Of a DNA stretch of 47,168 nt, positions 5,819-36,745 are shown piece by piece. How positions within the stretch are numbered: position 1 is the first letter of the stretch; each line of letters begins with the position of its first letter. Source of the DNA: an uncultured Eubacteriales bacterium. GTDB lineage: Bacteria > Bacillota > Clostridia > Peptostreptococcales > Anaerovoracaceae. The stretch covers positions 1 through 47,168 of the forward strand of contig CADBFL010000001.1 in the NCBI GenBank assembly GCA_902793875.1. The letters are read 5' to 3'. Below the pieces are notes generated by a model. The model searched no databases, had not been told where the DNA came from, and was given only the letters and a program-made list of their open reading frames with translations. Both the position numbers and the translations under genes were made by a program.

Positions 5819-8800
5819 ATGAAAATGGATAACAATTTTGTAAAAGTCGGTAAATGGGGCGAGTGCCTCTGGGGCATCAACGAGAACGGCGGGCTCTACA
5901 TCATAGAGGGTCTTGCCGGCAGCGTGGATGAAGGGATATCGCCGTGGGCTGATTCGATGGCGGCGATCACGTCCGCCAATACGGTCGGCACCGTGACATT
6001 CCCTGACGGGGCCTCTCTCGCGGGCCTGTTCAAGGGCTGCAAGAACATGGTGACTGCCGATCTCAGCGGCTTCGTCACGGACAATGTCTCGAACATGAGC
6101 TCGATGTTCGAGGGATGCGCCAACCTCAGGGAGCTCGACATCTCGTCTTTCGATACCCGCCGCTGCTCGAACATGCACGCGATGTTCAGCAAGTGCGCGA
6201 ACCTGGAGGAGATCCTTCTCGCCCAGGATTTCAGCACGGAAGGAGACGGAAGCACCCGCTGCGACAGGCTGGCTGTGAAGGAATACGGCAAGTATAAAAA
6301 GGCGAAGCCTATCTACGTCGAGGGATTCAGGGTGATATATCACGACAACCTCGACGAGGACCGCACCGAAGAAACAAGGACCACGCCGGGCGTCAGATAT
6401 ATCATCGAAGAGCCGATGTTCAGCTCGCCGAGCGACAGGGCGGTCTTCGTTTCGTGGAACACCGACCCCGATGCGAAGGGCGCGTATTACCGTCCGGGAA
6501 AGGCCGTCGATGCGCTCGACGAGGATCTCAACCTCTACGCAGTATGGGCATGGGCCCCTGTGATCAAACAGTCCCCTCAGATCAGATCATTCACATACGG
6601 AGAAAGGATACCGTTCGAAGTCCCTGAGATCGAATCCGTTAACGATCCGGAGGTCACCGGTTATCTCGAGATAAGCGAAACAGGCGAGGAAGGGACATGG
6701 AAGGTCATCAACCACAACACCATCCTTCCTGTATCCTACAACGGATGGCTCTGCAGGCTCCACGCCTCCAACAGCGTGGGCGAGGCCGTGTCCGATCCGG
6801 TCAAGCTCAATATAAAGAAGGCGAGCATTGACGTATCCGGCATACGCTGGGTCGAAGACAAAAACATGGTCTATGACGGCACGCCGAAGGAGGTCCATAT
6901 CGAGGGACTGCCTGACACCATCGAGCCGAGGTACGAGGGCAACGTCGCCACCGACGCGGGCACGTATACCGCGAGCTACGCGTTCGTCTTCGACAGGGAC
7001 AACTTCAACGAGCCTGTCACGGTAAGAGAGCACGAGTGGACCATCCGCAAGGCTGCCCTCGACATGTCGCAGGTGCGCTGGAACTACACGGGCGCATTCA
7101 GATATGACGGCACGGCCAGGAGCGTGGAGCTCACCGGCCTGCCTGAGGGAGTCACCGCGATCTATGAGAACAACGTCGCGACGGATACCGGCGTGTATAC
7201 CGCGACGGCGATGCTCAACTACGATTTCAAGAATTACGAAAAGCCGGCAGACATAGTCCCGTGCGTATGGGAGATCAGAAAGGTCACCATCGATGCGAGC
7301 TCTATCCGCTGGTCGGATTATGACGACTTCGTTTATGACGGCAACCCTAAGGGCGTGTATATCACGAACCTGCCTGACGACGCGGAGGTCGTATACGACG
7401 GGGCCGAAGAGACTCTCGCCGGCAAATACCTGGCAAGAGCGGCCTTCATCGGCAACTACAATACGAATGCTCCTGCGGAGTACGAGTGGGAGATCGCCAA
7501 GAGGCACTACGACCTCAGCAACGTCAGATGGACCGAGCAGAGGGACTTCTCGTATGACGGAGAGCCTCACGGCATAGTCCTCACAGGCGTTCCCGAGGAT
7601 CTGCAGGTAAGATATTCGGGCAATGTGGGAGTGACTGCGGGCAGCTATACCGCAAGGGCGGTGTTCATCAATCCGGACACTCACAACTACATCACGCCTG
7701 CCGACATGACCATGGAATGGCAGATAAGCAAGAAGTTCGTCGACATGTCGCAGGTCCGCTGGGATTACGAGGGAGCGTTCACATACGACGGAGAGGCGAA
7801 GGCCGTTTCGCTGGTCGGACTGCCTGAGGGCATAGGCGTGGATTACGAGAACTTCATGGCCTTCGATGCGGGCGAATACAACGCGCGCGCGATCCTGAGG
7901 TATGACGAGGACAATCTCGACGTCGAGTGGCCTGCGGACTGCCAGTGGAGGATCAACAAGAAAAAGATCGACGTGTCCGGCATCTACTGGGATTACAGCG
8001 ACGCGTTCACGTACACCGGAAGAGAGCACGCCGTTTATCTGGCGGGAGTTCCCGAAGGGCTGAACGTCGAATACGCAGACAACGTCAAGACGGAGACGGG
8101 CACATATGTCGCGAGCGCGACCCTGACTCCTGTTGACGAGGGCAACTACGAGGTGCCTGAAGTCAACGGCTGCACATGGACCATAAGAAAGGCCGAGTAC
8201 GAATTCGGAGCGATCGAGTGGACCGATTACAGGGGCTTTGTGTACGACGGAAAGGAAAAGAAGGTCAGGATCGAGTCCGGACTGGACGAGAATATCCGGG
8301 TCGAATACGAGGATGATACCGCGGTCAACGCCGGCAGGTACTTCACCAAGGCGGTATTCTCGCTGACCGATGACACCAACCTGAATCCGCCGAAGCCGGA
8401 GGGCTACTCGTGGAGCATCGCGAAGGCCAGACACGACATGTCCAAGGTCGTTTGGGACTATGAGAACGCATTCACCTACGACGGAAGCGAGAAGTCCGTG
8501 AGACTCCGCGGCGTCCCTGAAGGGGTGATAGTGAACTACAGGAACGCTTCGGCCAGCGACGCCGGAGACTATACCGCAGTCGCCCGCTTCGAGGTGCAGG
8601 ACGCTAACAACTACGAGACCAGCATACCTGACATGGTGCTCGACTGGACTATAAGAAAAGCCGTCTTCGACATGAGCGGAGCTAAATGGCAGGGAGACAG
8701 GGAATACGCCTACGACGGCGAGCTCAAGGGCGAGAGCCTGAGGCTGACCGGGCTTCCTGACGGCGTCGTCCCTGTATACGTCGACAGCACCGCGGTCGAT

Positions 8801-16638: not shown

Positions 16639-18564
16639 ATGACCGTTAACAAAAGGAATAATAAAATCGCCTTCAGGGCGGCGGCTCTGGCCGGCATTCT
16701 GGCGGTCGTGCTCATGATGATGCCGTTTGTATCCGAGCCTGTCTCGGCTGACGACAACACGATGAACACGCTGAACTACGATGTAGAGGTGGATGTCTCG
16801 GAAGACAACTCCTACGTATTCCACGAGTACATCAACATGTACTATGTGACGCCTCATCACGGCATATACAGATACCTGCCGAAGGAAGGCCAGAAGATCA
16901 CAAAGATAAAGATCCCGGACTATGACTACGAGATCTATACACAGAACGGTTTCGAGGTCATAAGGATCGGAAGCGCCAATTACGTGCTGACCGGCGAGCA
17001 GCCTTACGACATCTACTACAACATAGCGATGTTCGAGGATGAGAACGAAGAAAAGGACATGCTGCTGGTGAACCTTATCCCGGCCGACTGGGAGACGGGC
17101 ATCGAAAGCAGCGAGTGCGTCATACATCTTCCGAAAGAGGCCGACCTCAGCAAGGCCAACGTATACTCCGGCCCTTACGGCGCGGAGGGCAACGAGGATG
17201 AGGTCGTGATGGAGACGGGCGATGACGGCACGACCATCACGGTAAAGGCGGAGAACCTGCCTGCTCATCACGGCGTCACGGTCGAGCTCCCGCTTCCGCA
17301 GGGCTACTGGGTAGGCGCGCCTGAGTTCGGCAAGGTCGGACCGGCCACCATGCTCCTCTTCCTCCTCGGACCGGTCGGAGCCGCGATACTGTGGTTCCTC
17401 TTCGGCAGGGACAAGCACATGGTAAAGACGCTCGAGTTCTATCCTCCGGACGATCTGACGCCGGGAGAGATCGGATATCTCGTCGACGGCAAGGTCGACA
17501 AGCAGGACGTCATCTCGACCATAGTTTACCTCGCGGACAGAGGATACCTCGAGATAGAAGAGGTAGACCGCAAGCGCTTCAGGTTCATCGCAAAAGAGAG
17601 CCCGGGAGACGAGGTCCCGCCGTACGTCCGCTCAATTTACAAAGGCATCTTCCCTAACGGGAGGACCGAAGAATACAGCGATGAGCTTGGTATAACCTTC
17701 GGAACAAAATACCAGCAGTCGAGAGAGCAGCTCAACAGGATGTTCGCGGGATCGAGATCCATCATGAGACCGGACTCGGTCATGGCGAGATGGGGATGCG
17801 CCATCGCGGCGATCATGCCGTCTGTCGCATACGTGTCATGGGCCTCGATGAACGGTGAGGACCTGGGCATGGAGTCCGTCGTATGGCCGGCGCTGCATCT
17901 CTTCGTGGCATTATGGCTGATGTGGTCTGTATATGACAACATCCGCTCCACGTCGAAGGTCAAGACCGTGCTCAAGTGCATCGGCGCGATATGGTTCTAC
18001 TCCGTGGGCGTCGGCATACTGCCGATCGCGAGTGACGCGCTTTCGCTTCTCTCGCCTCCGAAAGCGCTTGCCATGGTGCTGTACCTGACTCTGGGAACGC
18101 TTATAAGCATGTTCTTCTCGGTCATCGCCATAGCGAAGACTGACAAGTACACAGACCTGCTCGGCAGGATACTCGGATTCAGAGACTTCATCAGGACAGC
18201 CGAACTCGACAAGCTGAACGAGCTGGTCGAGCAGGATCCGGAATACTTCTACCACATCATGCCTTACGCTTACGTGTTCGGCCTGAGCAACAAGTGGATC
18301 AAGAACTTTGAGAACATACCGATCGTCACGCCGAACTGGTACCGCGGCGTCAGAACGATGAATTCCTTCGACTACTACATGATGGGCCGCATGATGGGCG
18401 ACTGCAGCGCCAGCGTAGGCAGCCACATCGTCATGCCTTCGGCTCCTTCCGGAGGCGGCGGCTTCGGCGGCAGCGGAGGCGGCGGCTGGAGCGGCGGAGG
18501 CGGCTTCAGCGGAGGAGGCTTCTCAGGCGGCGGAATCGGCGGCGGCGGAGGCGGCGGCTGGTAA
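16639..18564 (+). CDS. DUF2207 domain membrane protein
   Basis: 641 aa with an N-terminal signal/TM, a large extracytoplasmic domain, several TM helices and a glycine-rich tail (GGGGFGGSGGGGWSGGGGFSGGGFSGGGIGGGGGGGW) characteristic of DUF2207 proteins. Confidence 0.8.
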   Translation: MTVNKRNNKIAFRAAALAGILAVVLMMMPFVSEPVSADDNTMNTLNYDVEVDVSEDNSYVFHEYINMYYVTPHHGIYRYLPKEGQKITKIKIPDYDYEIYTQNGFEVIRIGSANYVLTGEQPYDIYYNIAMFEDENEEKDMLLVNLIPADWETGIESSECVIHLPKEADLSKANVYSGPYGAEGNEDEVVMETGDDGTTITVKAENLPAHHGVTVELPLPQGYWVGAPEFGKVGPATMLLFLLGPVGAAILWFLFGRDKHMVKTLEFYPPDDLTPGEIGYLVDGKVDKQDVISTIVYLADRGYLEIEEVDRKRFRFIAKESPGDEVPPYVRSIYKGIFPNGRTEEYSDELGITFGTKYQQSREQLNRMFAGSRSIMRPDSVMARWGCAIAAIMPSVAYVSWASMNGEDLGMESVVWPALHLFVALWLMWSVYDNIRSTSKVKTVLKCIGAIWFYSVGVGILPIASDALSLLSPPKALAMVLYLTLGTLISMFFSVIAIAKTDKYTDLLGRILGFRDFIRTAELDKLNELVEQDPEYFYHIMPYAYVFGLSNKWIKNFENIPIVTPNWYRGVRTMNSFDYYMMGRMMGDCSASVGSHIVMPSAPSGGGGFGGSGGGGWSGGGGFSGGGFSGGGIGGGGGGGW

Positions 18565-18783
18565 GAAGACTTGTCCTGCCGATTGACGAGCGCCAGCGAA
18601 GGCAGAGGCATGGAAAGTCTTTTGCCAGGATCGCCCGAGAGACCGAGCCTCAGGAGAAGGACGATCGGCTGCGATCTACGGCTAGAAGACTTGTCCTGCC
18701 GGCAGACAAAGCCACAGTCCCGCCGACCGGCAAGCCAATTGCCCCGCCGGCAGACAAAACCACAGTCCCGCCGACCGGCAAGC
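18563..18783. repeat. Short intergenic direct repeats
   Basis: AGAAGACTTGTCCTGCCG occurs at about 18565 and 18684. GCCGGCAGACAAA(G/A)CCACAGTCCCGCCGACCGGCAAGC occurs twice (18699-18735 and 18746-18783). Confidence 0.6.
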
Positions 18784-18806
18784 GCGAGCGAAAGGAATTA
18801 ATACAT

Positions 18807-19421
18807 TTGAGGAATAAGATACTTATTTTCGGCGACAGCATCACATACGGACAGAAAGATCTCGAGCTTGGGGGGTGGACAAACCGCCTCAAGCTCGTGA
18901 TCGCAAATGACAGCTCAGGACTGAGCTGCCATGTCTTTAATATGGGAGTGCCGGGACAGACCACGGGCGAAGTGCTCGAGAGACTCGACAGGGAATGCAA
19001 AGGACGCATGCCCAAAGGCACCAATACTGTCATCATACTTGCGGCCGGCACTAACGATACTCAGATCATAGGGGGCAAGGTCCGTACAGACGAGGATACG
19101 CTCCGGAGCAATGTAGGGGCGCTCATCGATACCGCGAGACAGCGCGCAGATCACGTGATGTACATCGGACTCACCCCTGTAGACGAATCCCGAACCAACC
19201 CGGTGTACTGGGACAGGAAAAAGAACTGGCAGAACGAGGTCGTCGAAAACTACGACACGATCATCCGCCGGGTCTGCGAAGAAAAGGGCGTCAGATACCT
19301 GTACATGTTCGACAAGATAGATCCCCTCACCAATCAGGACGGACTCCACCCGTCTGCAGAAGGCCACCGCATCATGACGGGGCACATCGCGGGCGCGGTA
19401 TACGAATGCCTGAAAAGGTAG
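18807..19421 (+). CDS. SGNH/GDSL-family hydrolase
   Basis: 204 aa with N-terminal block I ILIFGDSITYG (catalytic Ser), a GTND block and a C-terminal DGLHP block (catalytic His). Confidence 0.8.
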   Translation: MRNKILIFGDSITYGQKDLELGGWTNRLKLVIANDSSGLSCHVFNMGVPGQTTGEVLERLDRECKGRMPKGTNTVIILAAGTNDTQIIGGKVRTDEDTLRSNVGALIDTARQRADHVMYIGLTPVDESRTNPVYWDRKKNWQNEVVENYDTIIRRVCEEKGVRYLYMFDKIDPLTNQDGLHPSAEGHRIMTGHIAGAVYECLKR

Positions 19422-19775
19422 CGGCTTTGGCGGCCCTGAAACAGAAAGCAGCTGCTGCCGGCACCCGCAAACACCCCAGGAGCGCGAGCGGCTTTTCCTT
19501 ATAATTGGAGCAAAACGAACGCGCACCGCTTTTCCCGAGCAGGCTTAAATATTACATAACCGGGGAATTCCCGTTCGCTCTCCTCTAAGCTCACTTGGTC
19601 TGCCGGCCGATCGCGCCGCTCTGTAATGCTTCCTTCCGATCTCACGGCGTTGCCGTAAAGACGGAAGCATTGATCTCCGTCGGCACAGCTCCTCCGATAA
19701 ATGCTGCCGCCCGGGCTATGTGAGGGCCTGGCGACAGCGCTGGCGCTCCCGGGGCAGACAGACAAAAGATCCTAA

Positions 19776-20405
19776 TTGGAGCGAAATGAGCCTCAGCCTC
19801 GAAAATGCACCATATACGGCAGGCCGGCAAAGCTAAAACTGGAGCGAAATGAGCGGCAGCCTCGAAAATGCACCAATTTCAGACTGAGCCAGGCGAGAAA
19901 ATTGGAGCGAAATGAGCGCGCACATCAAAAACGCACCATATACGGCAGGCCGGCAGTGCTAAAACTGGAGCGAAATGAGCGTGCATATCAAAAATGCACC
20001 ATATACGGCAGGCCGGCAGTGCTAAAACTGGAGCGAAATGAGCGCCTGCCCCGAAAATGCACCATATACGGCAGGCCGGCAACTTGAAAACTGGAGCGAA
20101 ATGAGCGGCAGCCTCGAAAATGCACCATATACGGCAGACTGACAAGCTGAAAACTGGAGCGAAATGAGCGCGCACATCAAAAACGCACCAATTCCAGGCT
20201 GATCTTAAAGGGAAAATTGGAACCAAATGAACGCATACGACGAAATGGTTCCAATTCCGGAGCGATCTGCAGGAGGAAATTGGAACCAAATGGCCGCGCA
20301 TGCCGAAATGGTTCCAATTCCGGAGTGATCTGCAGGAGGAAATTGGAACCAAATGGCCGCGCATGCCGAAATGGTTCCAATGCCACTCTGATCCGGAAGG
20401 TAAAA
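19776..20405. repeat. Tandem array of ten 63-bp hairpin-containing units (two subfamilies); a degenerate 11th unit follows to about 20468
   Basis: Unit starts are at 19776, 19839, 19902, 19965, 20028, 20091, 20154, 20217, 20280 and 20343, an exact 63-bp period. Units 1-7 read (C/T)TGGAGCGAAATGAGCG-N7-C(A/G)AAAA(T/C)GCACCA plus a 26-nt tail. Units 8-10 read TTGGAACCAAATG(G/A)(C/A)CGC..GAAATGGTTCCAA plus a tail. A solo degenerate copy lies at 19503-19535. Confidence 0.9.
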
Positions 20406-20482
20406 CTGAGGCAAATTGCTGTAAGGCGGCTGACTTTACACAAAACACAGACCGGGAAGGCCTCCTGAAATGAGCAGTCGTC

Positions 20483-20607
20483 AAAAGGTGCGGAAACACT
20501 TCAAGGTATATGAAAGTGCGGAAACACTACAAGATATCTGAATATCTGAGGGTACGGAAATACATCAGGATGCCTGAAGGTGCAAAAACACATTAAGACG
20601 CCGGGGG
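20483..20607 (+). repeat. Four direct repeats (about 28 nt) immediately upstream of the HAD gene
   Basis: The (G/A)GT(G/A)C(G/A)(G/A)AAA(C/T)AC cores start at 20487, 20515, 20551 and 20579, giving spacings of 28, 36 and 28. The 36 spacing contains an 8-nt ATCTGAAT duplication. Confidence 0.65.
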
Positions 20608-20651
20608 GTTCACCTGATGGAGATAAAGGAAGATCTATTACTGAGCGGGGA

Positions 20652-21299
20652 ATGAAAAAGAAATATATCATCTGGGACTTTGACGGTACCATAGCGTGTA
20701 CCAATGACATAATAATAGAATCCTGGCAGGCGACTTTCCGGCACTATCTTGGGCATGAACTGCCGGTCAGGGAGATAGAGGCGACCTTCGGGGAGACTCT
20801 GATGCATACCATCGCAGAGAAACTGCCCGGGGAGGATCCCGATGAGGTGATGGCCTGCTACAGGGCCTATCAGAATGCCCATTGCGAGGGCAGGGTCTAT
20901 GTGTTCGAAGGAGTGAGGGAGGTCCTGGATGAGCTCAGGACCCGGGGCTGCAGGCTCGGGGTAGCGACATCGAGGACTGCTAAGAGCTTCGGCAAATACA
21001 TGAAGGAGCTGGGCCTCGAAGACAGCATGGATGTCGTCGTCACCATGGAGGATGTCACGAAGCACAAGCCCGATCCCGAGTCGGTCGAAAAGGTGCTCGA
21101 AAAGTTCGGGGCAAAGCCCGAAGAAGCCATCATGATAGGAGATACGAAATACGACATAGCCTGCGCGAACAGGGCGGGAGTCGACAGCGTTCTGGTCGGA
21201 TGGAGCCACTGGGTGGATGAAGACGCGATGGCAGCCGAGGGTATAGAACCGGCGCACCGGATAAAAAGGCCGGAAGAACTGCTCGGCCTGATCGGATAA
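20652..21299 (+). CDS. HAD-superfamily phosphatase (PpaX/phosphoglycolate-phosphatase-like)
   Basis: It starts MKKKYIIWDFDGTIA (DxDGT motif I); motif II is GVATS and motif IV is GDTKYD. I prefer the ATG at 20652 over the track's GTG at 20580, which lies inside the upstream repeats. Confidence 0.8.
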   Translation: MKKKYIIWDFDGTIACTNDIIIESWQATFRHYLGHELPVREIEATFGETLMHTIAEKLPGEDPDEVMACYRAYQNAHCEGRVYVFEGVREVLDELRTRGCRLGVATSRTAKSFGKYMKELGLEDSMDVVVTMEDVTKHKPDPESVEKVLEKFGAKPEEAIMIGDTKYDIACANRAGVDSVLVGWSHWVDEDAMAAEGIEPAHRIKRPEELLGLIG

Positions 21300-21399
21300 A
21301 AAAGGCCGGAGGAGCTGCCCGGCCTGATCGGATAAAAAGGCCGAAGGAACTGCCCGGCCTGATCGGATAAAAAGGCCGGAAGAACTGCTCGGCCTGATC
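21259..21399 (+). repeat. Four tandem 35/36-bp units overlapping the 3' end of the HAD gene
   Basis: GGATAAAAAGGCCGGAAGAACTGCTCGGCCTGATC occurs at 21259, 21294, 21330 and 21365, and units 1 and 4 are identical. Each unit holds the hairpin AGGCCG-N11-CGGCCT. Unit 1 encodes the last 13 codons, and the stop is the GGATAA at the start of unit 2. Confidence 0.85.
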
Positions 21400-21505
21400 G
21401 GGTGAACGTGATCGAAAAACTGTTACCGAGTGATCATGATCATATTGCAAAGCAGGAACGCAGCTGAGGATGCGCGCGTGTCTGCAGGAATCAAAAGGAG
21501 ACAAA

Positions 21506-22631
21506 ATGCTGCAGCTAGAAGAAATAAGAAGCCAGCTTCCGGCTCTCATGGAGCAGATAGAGGAAGTGGGAGGTTATCTTTGACCCGGCGGGTCTTGAGA
21601 AACGCATAAAAGAGCTCGAGGACGAGAGCCTGAAGGACGGATTCTGGAACGACCAGAAGAAGGCGCAGAAGGTGCTGAAAGAAAAGAAATCTCTCGAAGG
21701 CAGACTTGCCGAATACGAGAAGCTTTCTTCTGATGCCGCCGAACTTCCGGATCTCATAGAGATAGCGGAGGAACTCGATGACGAGGACGAGGCGAAGAGC
21801 GTGGTCGCGACATTCGATGAACTTGCCGAGGAGCTCGAGGACCTGAAGACCAGGATGCTGCTGTCCGGAAAATACGACAGCAGGGACTGTATACTGAGCA
21901 TACACTCGGGCACGGGCGGAGTCGACGCGAACGACTGGGCCGAGATGCTCGAGAGGATGTACCTCAGATACTGCGAGAAGAAGGGCTTCAAAACGAAGCT
22001 GCTCGACAGGCAGGATGACGTCGACTACGGCATCAAGAGCTCGACCATACAGGTAGAGGGCGACAACGCATACGGACTTCTGAAGTCCGAGACGGGAGTC
22101 CACAGACTGGTCAGGATATCCCCGTTCAACGCGATGGGAAAGCGCCAGACATCGTTCGCGGCGGTCGAGGTCGTGCCGGATATAGGTGATGATATCGAAG
22201 TCAACATAGATCCGGGTGATCTCAAGATCGACACGTACAGATCGGGCGGCGCGGGCGGCCAGCACGTCAACACGACGGATTCGGCTGTCAGGATCACCCA
22301 CCTTCCGACCGGCATAGTCGTGACCTGTCAGAACGAGAGGTCGCAGATCATGAACCGCGAGGTGGCGATGAAGATCCTTGTGTCCAAGCTGACGAAGATC
22401 GCCGAAGAGGCCCACAAGGAGAACCTCAACGAGATAAAGGGCGACCAGTCGATGGCGACCTGGGGCTCGCAGATAAGAAACTACGTATTCCAGCCCTACA
22501 CCATGGTCAAGGACACGAGGACCGGCGCCGAGGTCGGAAACGTCGATGCGGTGATGGACGGCGACATCGATGTGTTCGTGAGGGCCAAGCTCTCGCAGGA
22601 CGCGGCTCAGAGCGGGAAACCGGCGGAATAG
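21506..22631 (+). CDS. prfB: Peptide chain release factor 2, requires programmed +1 frameshift: join(21506..21580, 21582..22631)
   Basis: Frame 0 reads MLQLEEIRSQLPALMEQIEEVGGYL and then hits TGA at 21581-21583. The +1 frame continues DPAGLEKRIKELEDE... into the track ORF 21672..22631. The SPF tripeptide (RISPFNA) and GGQ (GGAGGQHVN) are present. Confidence 0.9.
21568..21584 (+). other. prfB recoding site (internal SD + CTT TGA C slippery/stop context)
   Basis: GGGAGG-TTAT-CTT-TGA-C. It has the same CUU UGA C shift site and upstream SD-like element as the E. coli and B. subtilis prfB frameshift sites. Confidence 0.85.
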
Positions 22632-22708
22632 AAAAGAACAGGAAGGACTGCAGGATAGAAAAGAACAGGAAGGACTGCAGAATGGAAAAGCGCAGGATAA
22701 ATAAAGTC
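22628..22708 (+). repeat. 27-bp tandem triplication spanning the prfB stop and the lipoprotein RBS/start
   Basis: ATAGAAAAGAACAGGAAGGACTGCAG(G/A) occurs at 22628 and 22655. A third, diverged copy starts ATGGAAAAGCGCAGGATAA at 22682, which is the start codon of the next gene. Confidence 0.65.
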
Positions 22709-23458
22709 TCGGGAATCATGAAAAAACTTGCGGCTGCCGCGCTTGTGCTGGCCGTGGTATCAGTGTTTACTGCATGCAGCGGCGGGCAAGAAGAAGCTTC
22801 GGAAGACCTTAAAGTCATATATGACTGCTACTCGGAAAACGAAGTGGAATTCTCTACCGGGAACGGAAAACCTGTCAATACCCGTGAACACCTCTTTGTG
22901 GTGGAAAATGTTTCAGATAAGAGTATCGGCGAAGCAAAGATCCGCATCGATGCACTCGATGAGAACGGAGATGCGCTGACAAAGACAGCCGGCACCTCCG
23001 GCATCTATCATCTGCCTTATCTCATGCCCGGCGAAAAAGCGGTCGTAAGCTGCATGGATGCCGAGTGGACGGATGTCCCGGCAGGTTTCAGAACAGAGAT
23101 CACGGGAGGACGGGCAGATAAAGGAAGCGGAGCGCCGCTTACGATCACGTCTGCGTCGGAGACCTCTCCTTATTCCTGGGAGATAACGGTGAAAAATGAA
23201 GGCGACAGCGATGTGAAATGGGTGAACGGCTCTTTTGTTTCAGGCGACTCCGAAGATGACGCTGAAAGGATGCCTGTTCTGTTCGCGGTGGTAAAAGATG
23301 AGGGCGATGGAAAGATCGTTCGTGAAGGCGCCATGCTCAAAGGGGATGACTTTGCTATTGAAGATATCAATATCGCTCCGGGAGAGGAATACACAGCGGG
23401 ATTCAGTTTTGATGCACCGCTTGAAGATCCGGAATTCATAGTATGCTGGAGAATATGA
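22682..23458 (+). CDS. Putative lipoprotein, function unknown
   Basis: 258 aa with AGGAAGGA 7 nt upstream. It has a signal peptide with the lipobox VFTAC-SGG. I recognise no family. Confidence 0.6.
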   Translation: MEKRRINKVSGIMKKLAAAALVLAVVSVFTACSGGQEEASEDLKVIYDCYSENEVEFSTGNGKPVNTREHLFVVENVSDKSIGEAKIRIDALDENGDALTKTAGTSGIYHLPYLMPGEKAVVSCMDAEWTDVPAGFRTEITGGRADKGSGAPLTITSASETSPYSWEITVKNEGDSDVKWVNGSFVSGDSEDDAERMPVLFAVVKDEGDGKIVREGAMLKGDDFAIEDINIAPGEEYTAGFSFDAPLEDPEFIVCWRI

Positions 23459-36550: not shown

Positions 36551-36574
36551 GAATAAGCACACAGGCGCTTATCC

Positions 36575-36745
36575 GGACTGTACAGGCTGAAAACGAAGCA
36601 TGGCCCCCCCTGGACTGTACAGGCTGAAAACGAAGCATGGCCCCCTGGGCTGTACAGTCTGAAAACGAAGCATGGCCCCTCCGAATCGTTTAGTCTGAAT
36701 GCGAATTATGGCTTCTCCTGACTGTACAGTCTGAACCTGTACCAT
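36575..36745. repeat. Block 3: tandem 35-37-bp repeats carrying the palindrome CTGTACAG
   Basis: GG(A/G)CTGTACAG(G/T)CTGAAAACGAAGCATGGCCCC starts at 36575, 36612 and 36647. A degenerate fourth copy lies at about 36683, and a partial fifth copy (GACTGTACAGTCTGAACCTGTACC) at 36719. Confidence 0.85.

Follow-up and report, generated by a model that had tools for sequence, protein, structure and literature searches.

The window, by which we mean the whole stretch of 47,168 nucleotides that was analysed, carries a gene for an SGNH/GDSL hydrolase (18807–19421, plus strand; the identical protein is listed with PF00657 and PF13472) and, downstream of it, a gene for a HAD-family hydrolase of 215 amino acids (20652–21299, plus strand; Pfam HAD families, from the L001/L002 gene calls), which is followed by prfB. 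The initial annotation had placed a gene-free gap of about 1.2 kb between the two hydrolase genes, and this holds for 19422–20651, where no gene is called in two independent assemblies (L001 and L002). Within the gap, positions 19774–20403 consist of ten units of 63 bp that are arranged head-to-tail, with starts at every 63 bp from 19774 to 20341. Ten units with an exact period of 63 bp had also been reported initially, whereby the start given there, 19776, belongs to the same register. The 5′ motif of the unit yields 12 matches in the window compared to 0.27 expected by chance.

The units fall into two types. Units 1–7 (type A, 19774–20214, plus strand) read TGGAGCG...YGCACCA and have a stem that contains an A.A mismatch and, in most cases, a G.T pair, whereas units 8–10 (type B, 20215–20403, plus strand) have a perfect 11-bp stem (AATTGGAACCA/TGGTTCCAATT), so that the division into a mismatched and a perfect stem subfamily was found as described. 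The hairpin identities that had been noted between units 2 and 6 and between units 3 and 7 extend over positions 1–39 and 4–39, respectively. From type A to type B, stem pair 8-35 changes from G:C to A:T and pair 10-33 from G:C to C:G, while the A.A oppositions at pairs 7-36 and 11-32 become A:T pairs. Thus, the double compensatory changes occur as stated in the initial annotation, except that pair 10-33 is G.T and not G:C in 60 of the 75 distinct type A units.

Further modules surround the array. Upstream lies X′, a partial inverted copy of a module X (19454–19502, plus strand), which matches the inverted X arm ahead of a module S in contigs L040 and L046. Module S itself (19503–19566, plus strand) had been read as a solo degenerate copy of the unit; the likeness is real for its first 24 nt, which are type A-like, and the rest is unrelated. 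This 63-nt module sits between inverted X copies (X′ and X) in the window, L040, and L046. Module X (19567–19773, plus strand) measures about 135 bp, forms a GC-rich double hairpin, and is split into 19567–19623 and 19703–19773 by a 79-bp hairpin insert (19624–19702), which is present at this locus only (window, L001, L002, and L039). A 56-bp piece of the insert recurs with 87.5% identity in L035 (3695–3750), far from arrays, and the 79-bp segment may be a second small dispersed element. The trailing sequence downstream of the array (20404–20484, plus strand) includes what had been taken for a degenerate 11th unit (20404–20466). Its likeness to a unit is confined to about the first 13 nt, and the sequence is restricted to this locus (window, L039, and L032). 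It is followed, just upstream of the HAD start, by a locus-specific 28-bp repeat with the core GTGCGGAAACAC (20485–20604, plus strand), of which there are four copies in the window and five in L002 and L039.

The insertion between the SGNH and HAD genes

The entire 1230-bp segment from the SGNH stop to the HAD start (19422–20651, plus strand) is also present in the same-species contigs L001, L002, L039, and L032, whereby L039 and L032 represent the window's own locus with 98.5% and 89% identity, respectively. It is missing in relatives. In six contigs from four lineages (L025–L030), the SGNH and HAD genes directly adjoin or run into each other (−4 to +6 bp); SGNH protein identity is 90% for L025, 86% for L026/L027, 74% for L028/L029, and 71% for L030, and the L025 junction reads TAGCGGATGATGGAAATGAAAAAG. 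Since the two genes abut in relatives, the whole 1.23 kb is a recent, lineage-specific insertion. No clear target-site duplication was detected at this locus, which offers the single filled/empty comparison. Within the species the number of units at the locus is 7 (L001), 10 (window), 11 (L002), and 16 (L039), and the unit order differs as well; all sequences analysed are metagenome assemblies, and as short-read assemblies can collapse tandem arrays, these absolute copy numbers are soft.

Among the relatives of the SGNH protein, only one is named, namely a partial protein of a Mogibacterium sp. MAG with 88% identity. In the NCBI taxonomy, Mogibacterium belongs to the Anaerovoracaceae within the Clostridia. 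One related contig comes from project PRJEB21624, which we take to be a cattle-rumen study. The host is an uncultured Mogibacterium-like bacterium (Anaerovoracaceae) and probably of rumen origin.

Several other features were observed in the surroundings of the insertion. The prfB gene, which encodes RF2, has a canonical site for programmed +1 frameshifting (window 21507–21584), with the ATG of ORF0 at 21507, a GGGAGG, and CTTTGAC at 21578–21584. Thus, the 319-aa ORF at 21672–22631 is only the downstream part of RF2. At 21258–21401, a 35-bp hairpin unit (GGCCGG...CCGGCC) is repeated four times. The copies start within the 3′ end of the HAD gene, so that the last 13 HAD codons and the TAA stop (21297–21299) consist of 35-bp unit sequence, they look like intrinsic terminators on the minus strand, and they were found at this locus only (L039). 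Other intergenic minisatellites of the clade have periods of 22–107 bp, and several of them are palindromic (window 18691–18783, 22626–22697, and 36572–36735; L030 5836–6043; L034 5749–5866; L044 4795–4951; L037 2266–2399), which suggests that intergenic DNA is generally prone to tandem duplication in this clade. The Gly-rich low-complexity tail of a DUF2207 protein (window 18450–18558) is encoded by a CGG/GGC triplet repeat, in place of which relatives have a version with a 36-bp period.

Complementarity, folding, and coding capacity of the units

For the analysis of the unit itself we used a set of 156 units, 128 of them distinct. The spacing is 63 bp throughout the arrays of this set, and two exceptions of 62 bp occur in loci found later in ENA (about 170 junctions). 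Each unit consists of an inverted-repeat core of about 42 nt and a 21-nt linker. Positions 1–15 and 29–41 are nearly invariant, including the unpaired A12, A13, A30, and A31, while the loop (16–28) and the linker (42–63) are highly variable among the 128 distinct units. Since it is mainly the arms that are conserved, the array is no minisatellite that drifts uniformly. Besides types A and B, a type C (TGGTGCR/YGCACCA) was found, which is perfectly paired apart from a single G.T wobble in one of its five units; here, pair 7-36 is T:A and pair 10-33 is G:C or A:T. In a type A′ (TAGGGCR/TGCACTA), pair 5-38 is compensated to A:T, while two other A′ units are broken at this pair (A.C). Three units are A/B hybrids, which are in register and have arms that do not match.

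Across 120 distinct 45-nt cores, 84.3% of the 960 stem cells are paired, compared to 24–37% in slid registers. Four of the eight stem pairs are changed on both sides, and none of 500 shuffles reaches the observed covariation score, although kinship among the units inflates such statistics and the number of independent events is about five. On the sense strand, 58 units have G.T and 3 have T.G at pair 10-33, which is compatible with G.U pairing in RNA. Attempts to derive extra helices from mutual information between loop and linker were not accepted, as the signal is dominated by linkage among few linker variants.

Folding energies differ strongly between the types. The type A hairpin has −2.2 to −3.7 kcal/mol as DNA (z about 0) and −6.7 to −7.7 kcal/mol as RNA (z −0.6 to −0.9), which is no better than shuffled sequence, whereas type B has −11.5 (DNA) and −17.6 kcal/mol (RNA) with z about −3.8, and types B and C both fold much better than shuffles. 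For the whole array, z is −2.7 on the plus and −3.4 on the minus strand; being similar, these values do not discriminate between the strands. For the 352-nt leader, folding is not improved over shuffled sequence. The initial annotation had argued for selection on structure, as RNA or cruciform DNA. In favor of this, the arms are kept complementary by several independent double changes and the array is non-coding; against it, the seven type A units among the ten of the window form only a marginal hairpin. As for the kind of structure, compensation fits RNA hairpins, hairpins of single-stranded DNA, and template-switch correction of quasi-palindromes alike.

As 63 bp equal 21 codons, the array might also encode a protein made of 21-residue repeats. 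There is a minus-strand ORF of 206 aa (19879–20499), one minus-strand frame has no stop in the 50 type B units, and the ORF is matched by 11 database proteins. Yet, whichever frame is read, at least 21 of the 75 type A units contain a stop, the variability shows no 3-base periodicity and hence no sign of codons, and the 11 matches have no Pfam domain and are antisense calls over these same arrays. The flanking genes lie on the opposite strand, and the gene calls of L001 and L002 leave the gap empty. We consider a repeat protein hardly credible. A mini-ORF (GGAG...ATG, unit positions 5–15) was discarded as well, because ACG or ACA replaces the ATG in 12 of the 50 type B units.

Other known kinds of array were also considered. 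A CRISPR array, in which constant repeats would alternate with unique spacers of at least about 26 nt, usually near cas genes, does not agree with the variable segments, which measure 10–13 nt (loop) and about 21 nt (linker) and occur in few related variants, nor with the flanks, which contain no cas genes. A series of terminators was rejected, since no T-run follows the hairpins and all terminator-like matches of the gap are minus-strand matches located outside the units. A scan of 18500–22800 for sigma-70 promoters yielded none. In Rfam 15, a tRNA was the only match of the whole window at the gathering score, and a search of 19300–20800 with E values up to 10 gave a best E of at least 0.45, which is far below the threshold.

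Occurrence and turnover at other loci

In order to find further units, JGI metagenome contigs were scanned with a pattern covering unit types A and B. This led to 17 stretches with 1–14 units each on 16 contigs from two JGI metagenomes, with two arrays sharing a single contig of 17 kb. L039 and L032, which represent the window's own locus, are among these contigs, and the remaining stretches lie at different places. Searching proteins with the antisense ORF gave only the 11 domainless database proteins mentioned above, three of which led to further array contigs in ENA. Taken together, strict 63-bp arrays were found on other metagenome contigs in about 15 distinct gene contexts. The flanking genes are unrelated housekeeping genes, and the contexts include uvrB|uvrA, a SpoU-type methylase gene (rlmB-like)|rpmG-secE-nusG, NifH-like|nitrogenase-like, YitT|FeoA, AcnX swivel protein|an unidentified gene, AMP-binding enzyme|IF-2B family, and HTH regulator|PadR, as well as positions upstream of MarR and upstream of glgC, and others. 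The tetranucleotide composition of the array contigs correlates with that of the window at r 0.80–0.96, compared to at most 0.71 for unrelated taxa. Neither a transposase nor a recurrent neighbour gene was found among 20 array-flanking proteins. The gap had no blastn match in phage and plasmid collections, and the unit pattern had none in viral contigs. Among 185,579 GTDB species-representative genomes, the pattern matched 21 times, each time as a single scattered match in unrelated taxa, which was taken as chance. Thus, either this set lacks the host species or its arrays were left unassembled.

Dispersal bears on a further explanation, according to which the array is a neutral, locus-specific minisatellite (VNTR) that arose by local duplication and whose compensated stems are due to chance. 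The initial annotation had itself named a strain-specific array with freely varying copy number as neutral behavior, and this applies in part: the number ranges from 7 to 16 units between strains, and sister lineages lack the insertion. Such an origin would also agree with the presence of several further intergenic tandem repeats, each confined to its own locus, in the window and in related contigs. Locus specificity is contradicted, however, by units at about 15 unrelated loci, whereas the window's other tandem repeats are confined to their loci. Moreover, the arms are invariant and variation is confined to loop and linker, and complementarity is far above that of the shuffled and slid controls. 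We therefore regard a neutral VNTR as highly improbable.

Most arrays are accompanied by module X, which recurs at at least ten loci. An alignment of 13 X copies revealed that its long hairpin is kept, with 11 of 35 predicted pairs compensated by changes on both sides. The modules form mosaics of the types X′-S-X-A(n)-B(m), B(n)-X-A(m), and A(n)-B(m)-X, as well as B-only and A-only arrays, and these mosaics occupy intergenic spacers, where their start often coincides with, or extends over, the upstream gene's stop codon. In L045, L042/L049, and L041, the first unit supplies this stop codon and sometimes the last codons, while in L038 the stop is supplied by linker-like sequence ahead of the first unit. 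Several arrays are located within probable operons, for example, at uvrB|uvrA and rlmB-like|rpmG. At 13 of 14 scorable loci, the units are co-oriented with the nearest genes on both sides, the exception being the A block of L046. In the same contig, two B units at 6647–6772 are inverted directly after the forward A block, which is the only inverted arrangement seen.

Loci that are shared between genomes give some insight into the turnover of the arrays. At YitT|FeoA, two strains with about 95% identity differ in the presence of a block of about 480 bp, which comprises an X core, four A units, and an inverted X core. The block lies at 7117–7596 in L034, corresponds to the 4466–4465 junction in L050, and is bounded by inverted X copies, and the difference can be read either as a hairpin-bounded deletion or as an insertion. 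Together with the A/B hybrids, this segment points to recombinational turnover. At a larger distance, arrays at rlmB-like|rpmG and at AMP-binding|IF-2B are shared by two species with a DNA identity of about 85% in the flanks. The contents of these arrays differ: six A/A′ units and a degenerate seventh stand against two B units at one junction, and X-A7-B5 against one A, four B, and a degenerate sixth unit at the other. As both species have arrays at the same two junctions, some loci are old and undergo internal turnover and are not merely transient. Unlike these shared loci, the insertion between the SGNH and HAD genes is recent.

The orientation of the units leads to the question of whether the host uses them. 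It might be that the arrays are host-selected structured RNAs, which act either in cis as intercistronic hairpins (in mRNA stability, processing, or the uncoupling of genes) or in trans as an RNA with multiple hairpins by which an RNA-binding protein is titrated. This would agree with the co-orientation at 13 of 14 loci, the location of several arrays in probable operons, the G.U-compatible pair 10-33 of the sense strand, the near-invariance of the four unpaired A's together with the almost fixed unit length, the arrays kept at orthologous loci in two species, and the good folding of types B and C. On the other hand, type A, which is the commonest unit, folds no better than shuffles, hybrid units with broken stems are tolerated, near-identical strains vary freely in copy number and unit make-up, sister lineages with abutting SGNH and HAD genes do without the array, and no Rfam family matches. 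The directional argument is also ambiguous. In the Bacillota, most genes follow the direction of replication, so that the sense strand of the arrays is also the lagging-strand template; gene and replication directions are therefore confounded, and both the orientation bias and the G.T pairs can be explained equally well by hairpins of RNA and by hairpins of single-stranded DNA. Overall, a host-selected structured RNA seems unlikely to us.

A role at the DNA level was considered as well. Each unit could present an inverted-repeat site for a dimeric protein of the nucleoid-associated, partition-like, or topoisomerase type, whereby phasing at 63 bp, about six helical turns, would place all sites on one face of the helix. 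Half-sites of an inverted repeat co-vary just as the arms of an RNA stem do, the 63-bp period is almost never broken, and the conserved bases reach past the paired arms (AAATG and GAAA). Against this, the G.T positions make the half-sites asymmetric in duplex DNA for most A units, a symmetric duplex site is not expected to show a strong gene-orientation bias, and no candidate gene for a binding protein recurs beside the arrays. The helical-phase match may be coincidence, as 63 is likewise the length of 21 codons. Such a binding platform would thus be a rather improbable explanation.

Relation to described repeat systems and possible mechanism

The initial annotation knew of no described element with this form. 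This view does not stand, insofar as the array can be placed as one locus of a dispersed, modular repeat family of the REP/BIME, BOX, and MIRU kind, with which it was compared by the descriptions of those systems. REP/BIME elements are short imperfect palindromes in intergenic transcribed regions, at the 3′ ends of genes or between operon genes, of enterobacteria and pseudomonads. The present units share with them that they are non-coding, dispersed palindromes (about 15 loci) with mosaic clusters, variable copy number, and compensated stems. In contrast to BIME units, which alternate in orientation and are separated by defined linker motifs, the 63-bp units are strictly head-to-tail with a fixed period, apart from the two inverted B units of L046; they are also longer (42-nt core and 21-nt linker), and the host is a Gram-positive of the class Clostridia. 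REP/BIME elements have a cognate RAYT (IS200/IS605-like Y1) transposase, the gene of which is flanked by the repeats. For the present family, 20 array-flanking proteins from contig fragments were scanned, and none of them is a transposase.

BOX elements of Streptococcus pneumoniae have the structure boxA-boxB(n)-boxC, belong to the Bacillota, are predicted to form stable hairpins, and are located beside genes with which they are co-transcribed. The likeness here is a dispersed, non-coding, and modular build with a tandem internal subunit that occurs in variable number between other modules, as is also the case for the present arrays. The subunit measures 63 bp instead of 45 bp, though, the arrays reach 16 units, and two to three interchangeable hairpin subtypes are combined with module X in variable order; the comparison with BOX is one of build and not of sequence. 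MIRUs are tandem units of 40–100 bp in intergenic spacers within operons of mycobacteria, and they resemble the present arrays in their co-orientation with the flanking genes, their strain-variable copy number, and the overlap with the upstream stop codon at some loci. However, MIRUs are described as having small ORFs that overlap the stop and start codons of their neighbours and thereby couple translation, whereas all frames of the type A units have stops and the ATG at unit positions 13–15 is not conserved, as described above for the type B units. What defines the present family is the symmetry of its hairpins, and the phylum differs. Finally, MITE-like elements (Correia/NEMIS, RUP, and ERIC) and STAR of Staphylococcus aureus are likewise small, non-autonomous intergenic elements with inverted repeats, and in many cases they are transcribed together with genes, the ends of which they can provide or modify. 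They are mostly single units with terminal inverted repeats and target-site duplications, whereas in the present family phased tandem arrays predominate and no duplication was seen.

On this comparative basis, the best-supported classification is that of a new family of the REP/BIME, BOX, and MIRU kind. We consider it likely that the array is one locus of such a lineage-restricted, non-coding, modular interspersed family of hairpin repeats. According to the mechanism that we propose, an element would have been inserted between the SGNH and HAD genes, which had previously abutted, and the arrays would grow, shrink, and reshuffle by whole units through slipped-strand mispairing or unequal recombination. 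What is copied or recognised may be the sense-strand hairpin, which would explain why the arms and the adjoining unpaired A's are constant; the sense strand is also the lagging-strand template in single-stranded DNA and the strand that co-transcribed RNA contains. This constancy could be kept either by selection on propagation or by template-switch correction of quasi-palindromes. The effect on the host would probably be near-neutral, and any effect might be a by-product in cis, in that hairpins in the transcript would uncouple neighbouring genes or shield the upstream mRNA from 3′ exonucleases. Uncoupling and protection of this kind have been reported for REP and BOX elements.

Several findings sit less well with this explanation. 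Neither a transposase nor a recurrent neighbouring gene was found beside the arrays, no clear target-site duplication was seen at the filled/empty comparison, and arrays persist at two loci in two species. Moreover, the 63-bp length is kept strictly despite heavy substitution in the loop, which seems tighter than would be expected for a neutral repeat. The strict length and the four unpaired A's could hint at a host function, and a low probability of such a function is kept alive by the near-absolute 63-bp length, the unpaired A's, and the persistence across species. In a more specific form, the units would be phased hairpin cassettes that the host uses, with constant stems, A-rich internal loops, and fast-changing apical loops of 10–13 nt. 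They might be an intercistronic RNA that sets the expression of essential neighbours (prfB, uvrA, and rpmG-secE-nusG), or the substrate of an undiscovered, hairpin-specific HUH/RAYT-like enzyme of Clostridia that builds head-to-tail arrays. Such host-used cassettes are a speculative proposal, which we regard as doubtful.

The hairpin repeat family overturns nothing in current understanding. It adds a well-defined family to the poorly studied uncultured Anaerovoracaceae of the rumen, where such repeats are hardly catalogued, partly because short-read MAGs break at them; many contigs with the flanking gene are only 1–5 kb long. The locus is also an example of an insertion that splits formerly abutting genes upstream of essential genes, and strain typing in metagenomes could make use of the arrays as VNTR markers. 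With three hairpin modules that have compensated variants, the family offers a natural case for the question of how hairpin symmetry is kept up, by selection or by template-switch correction.
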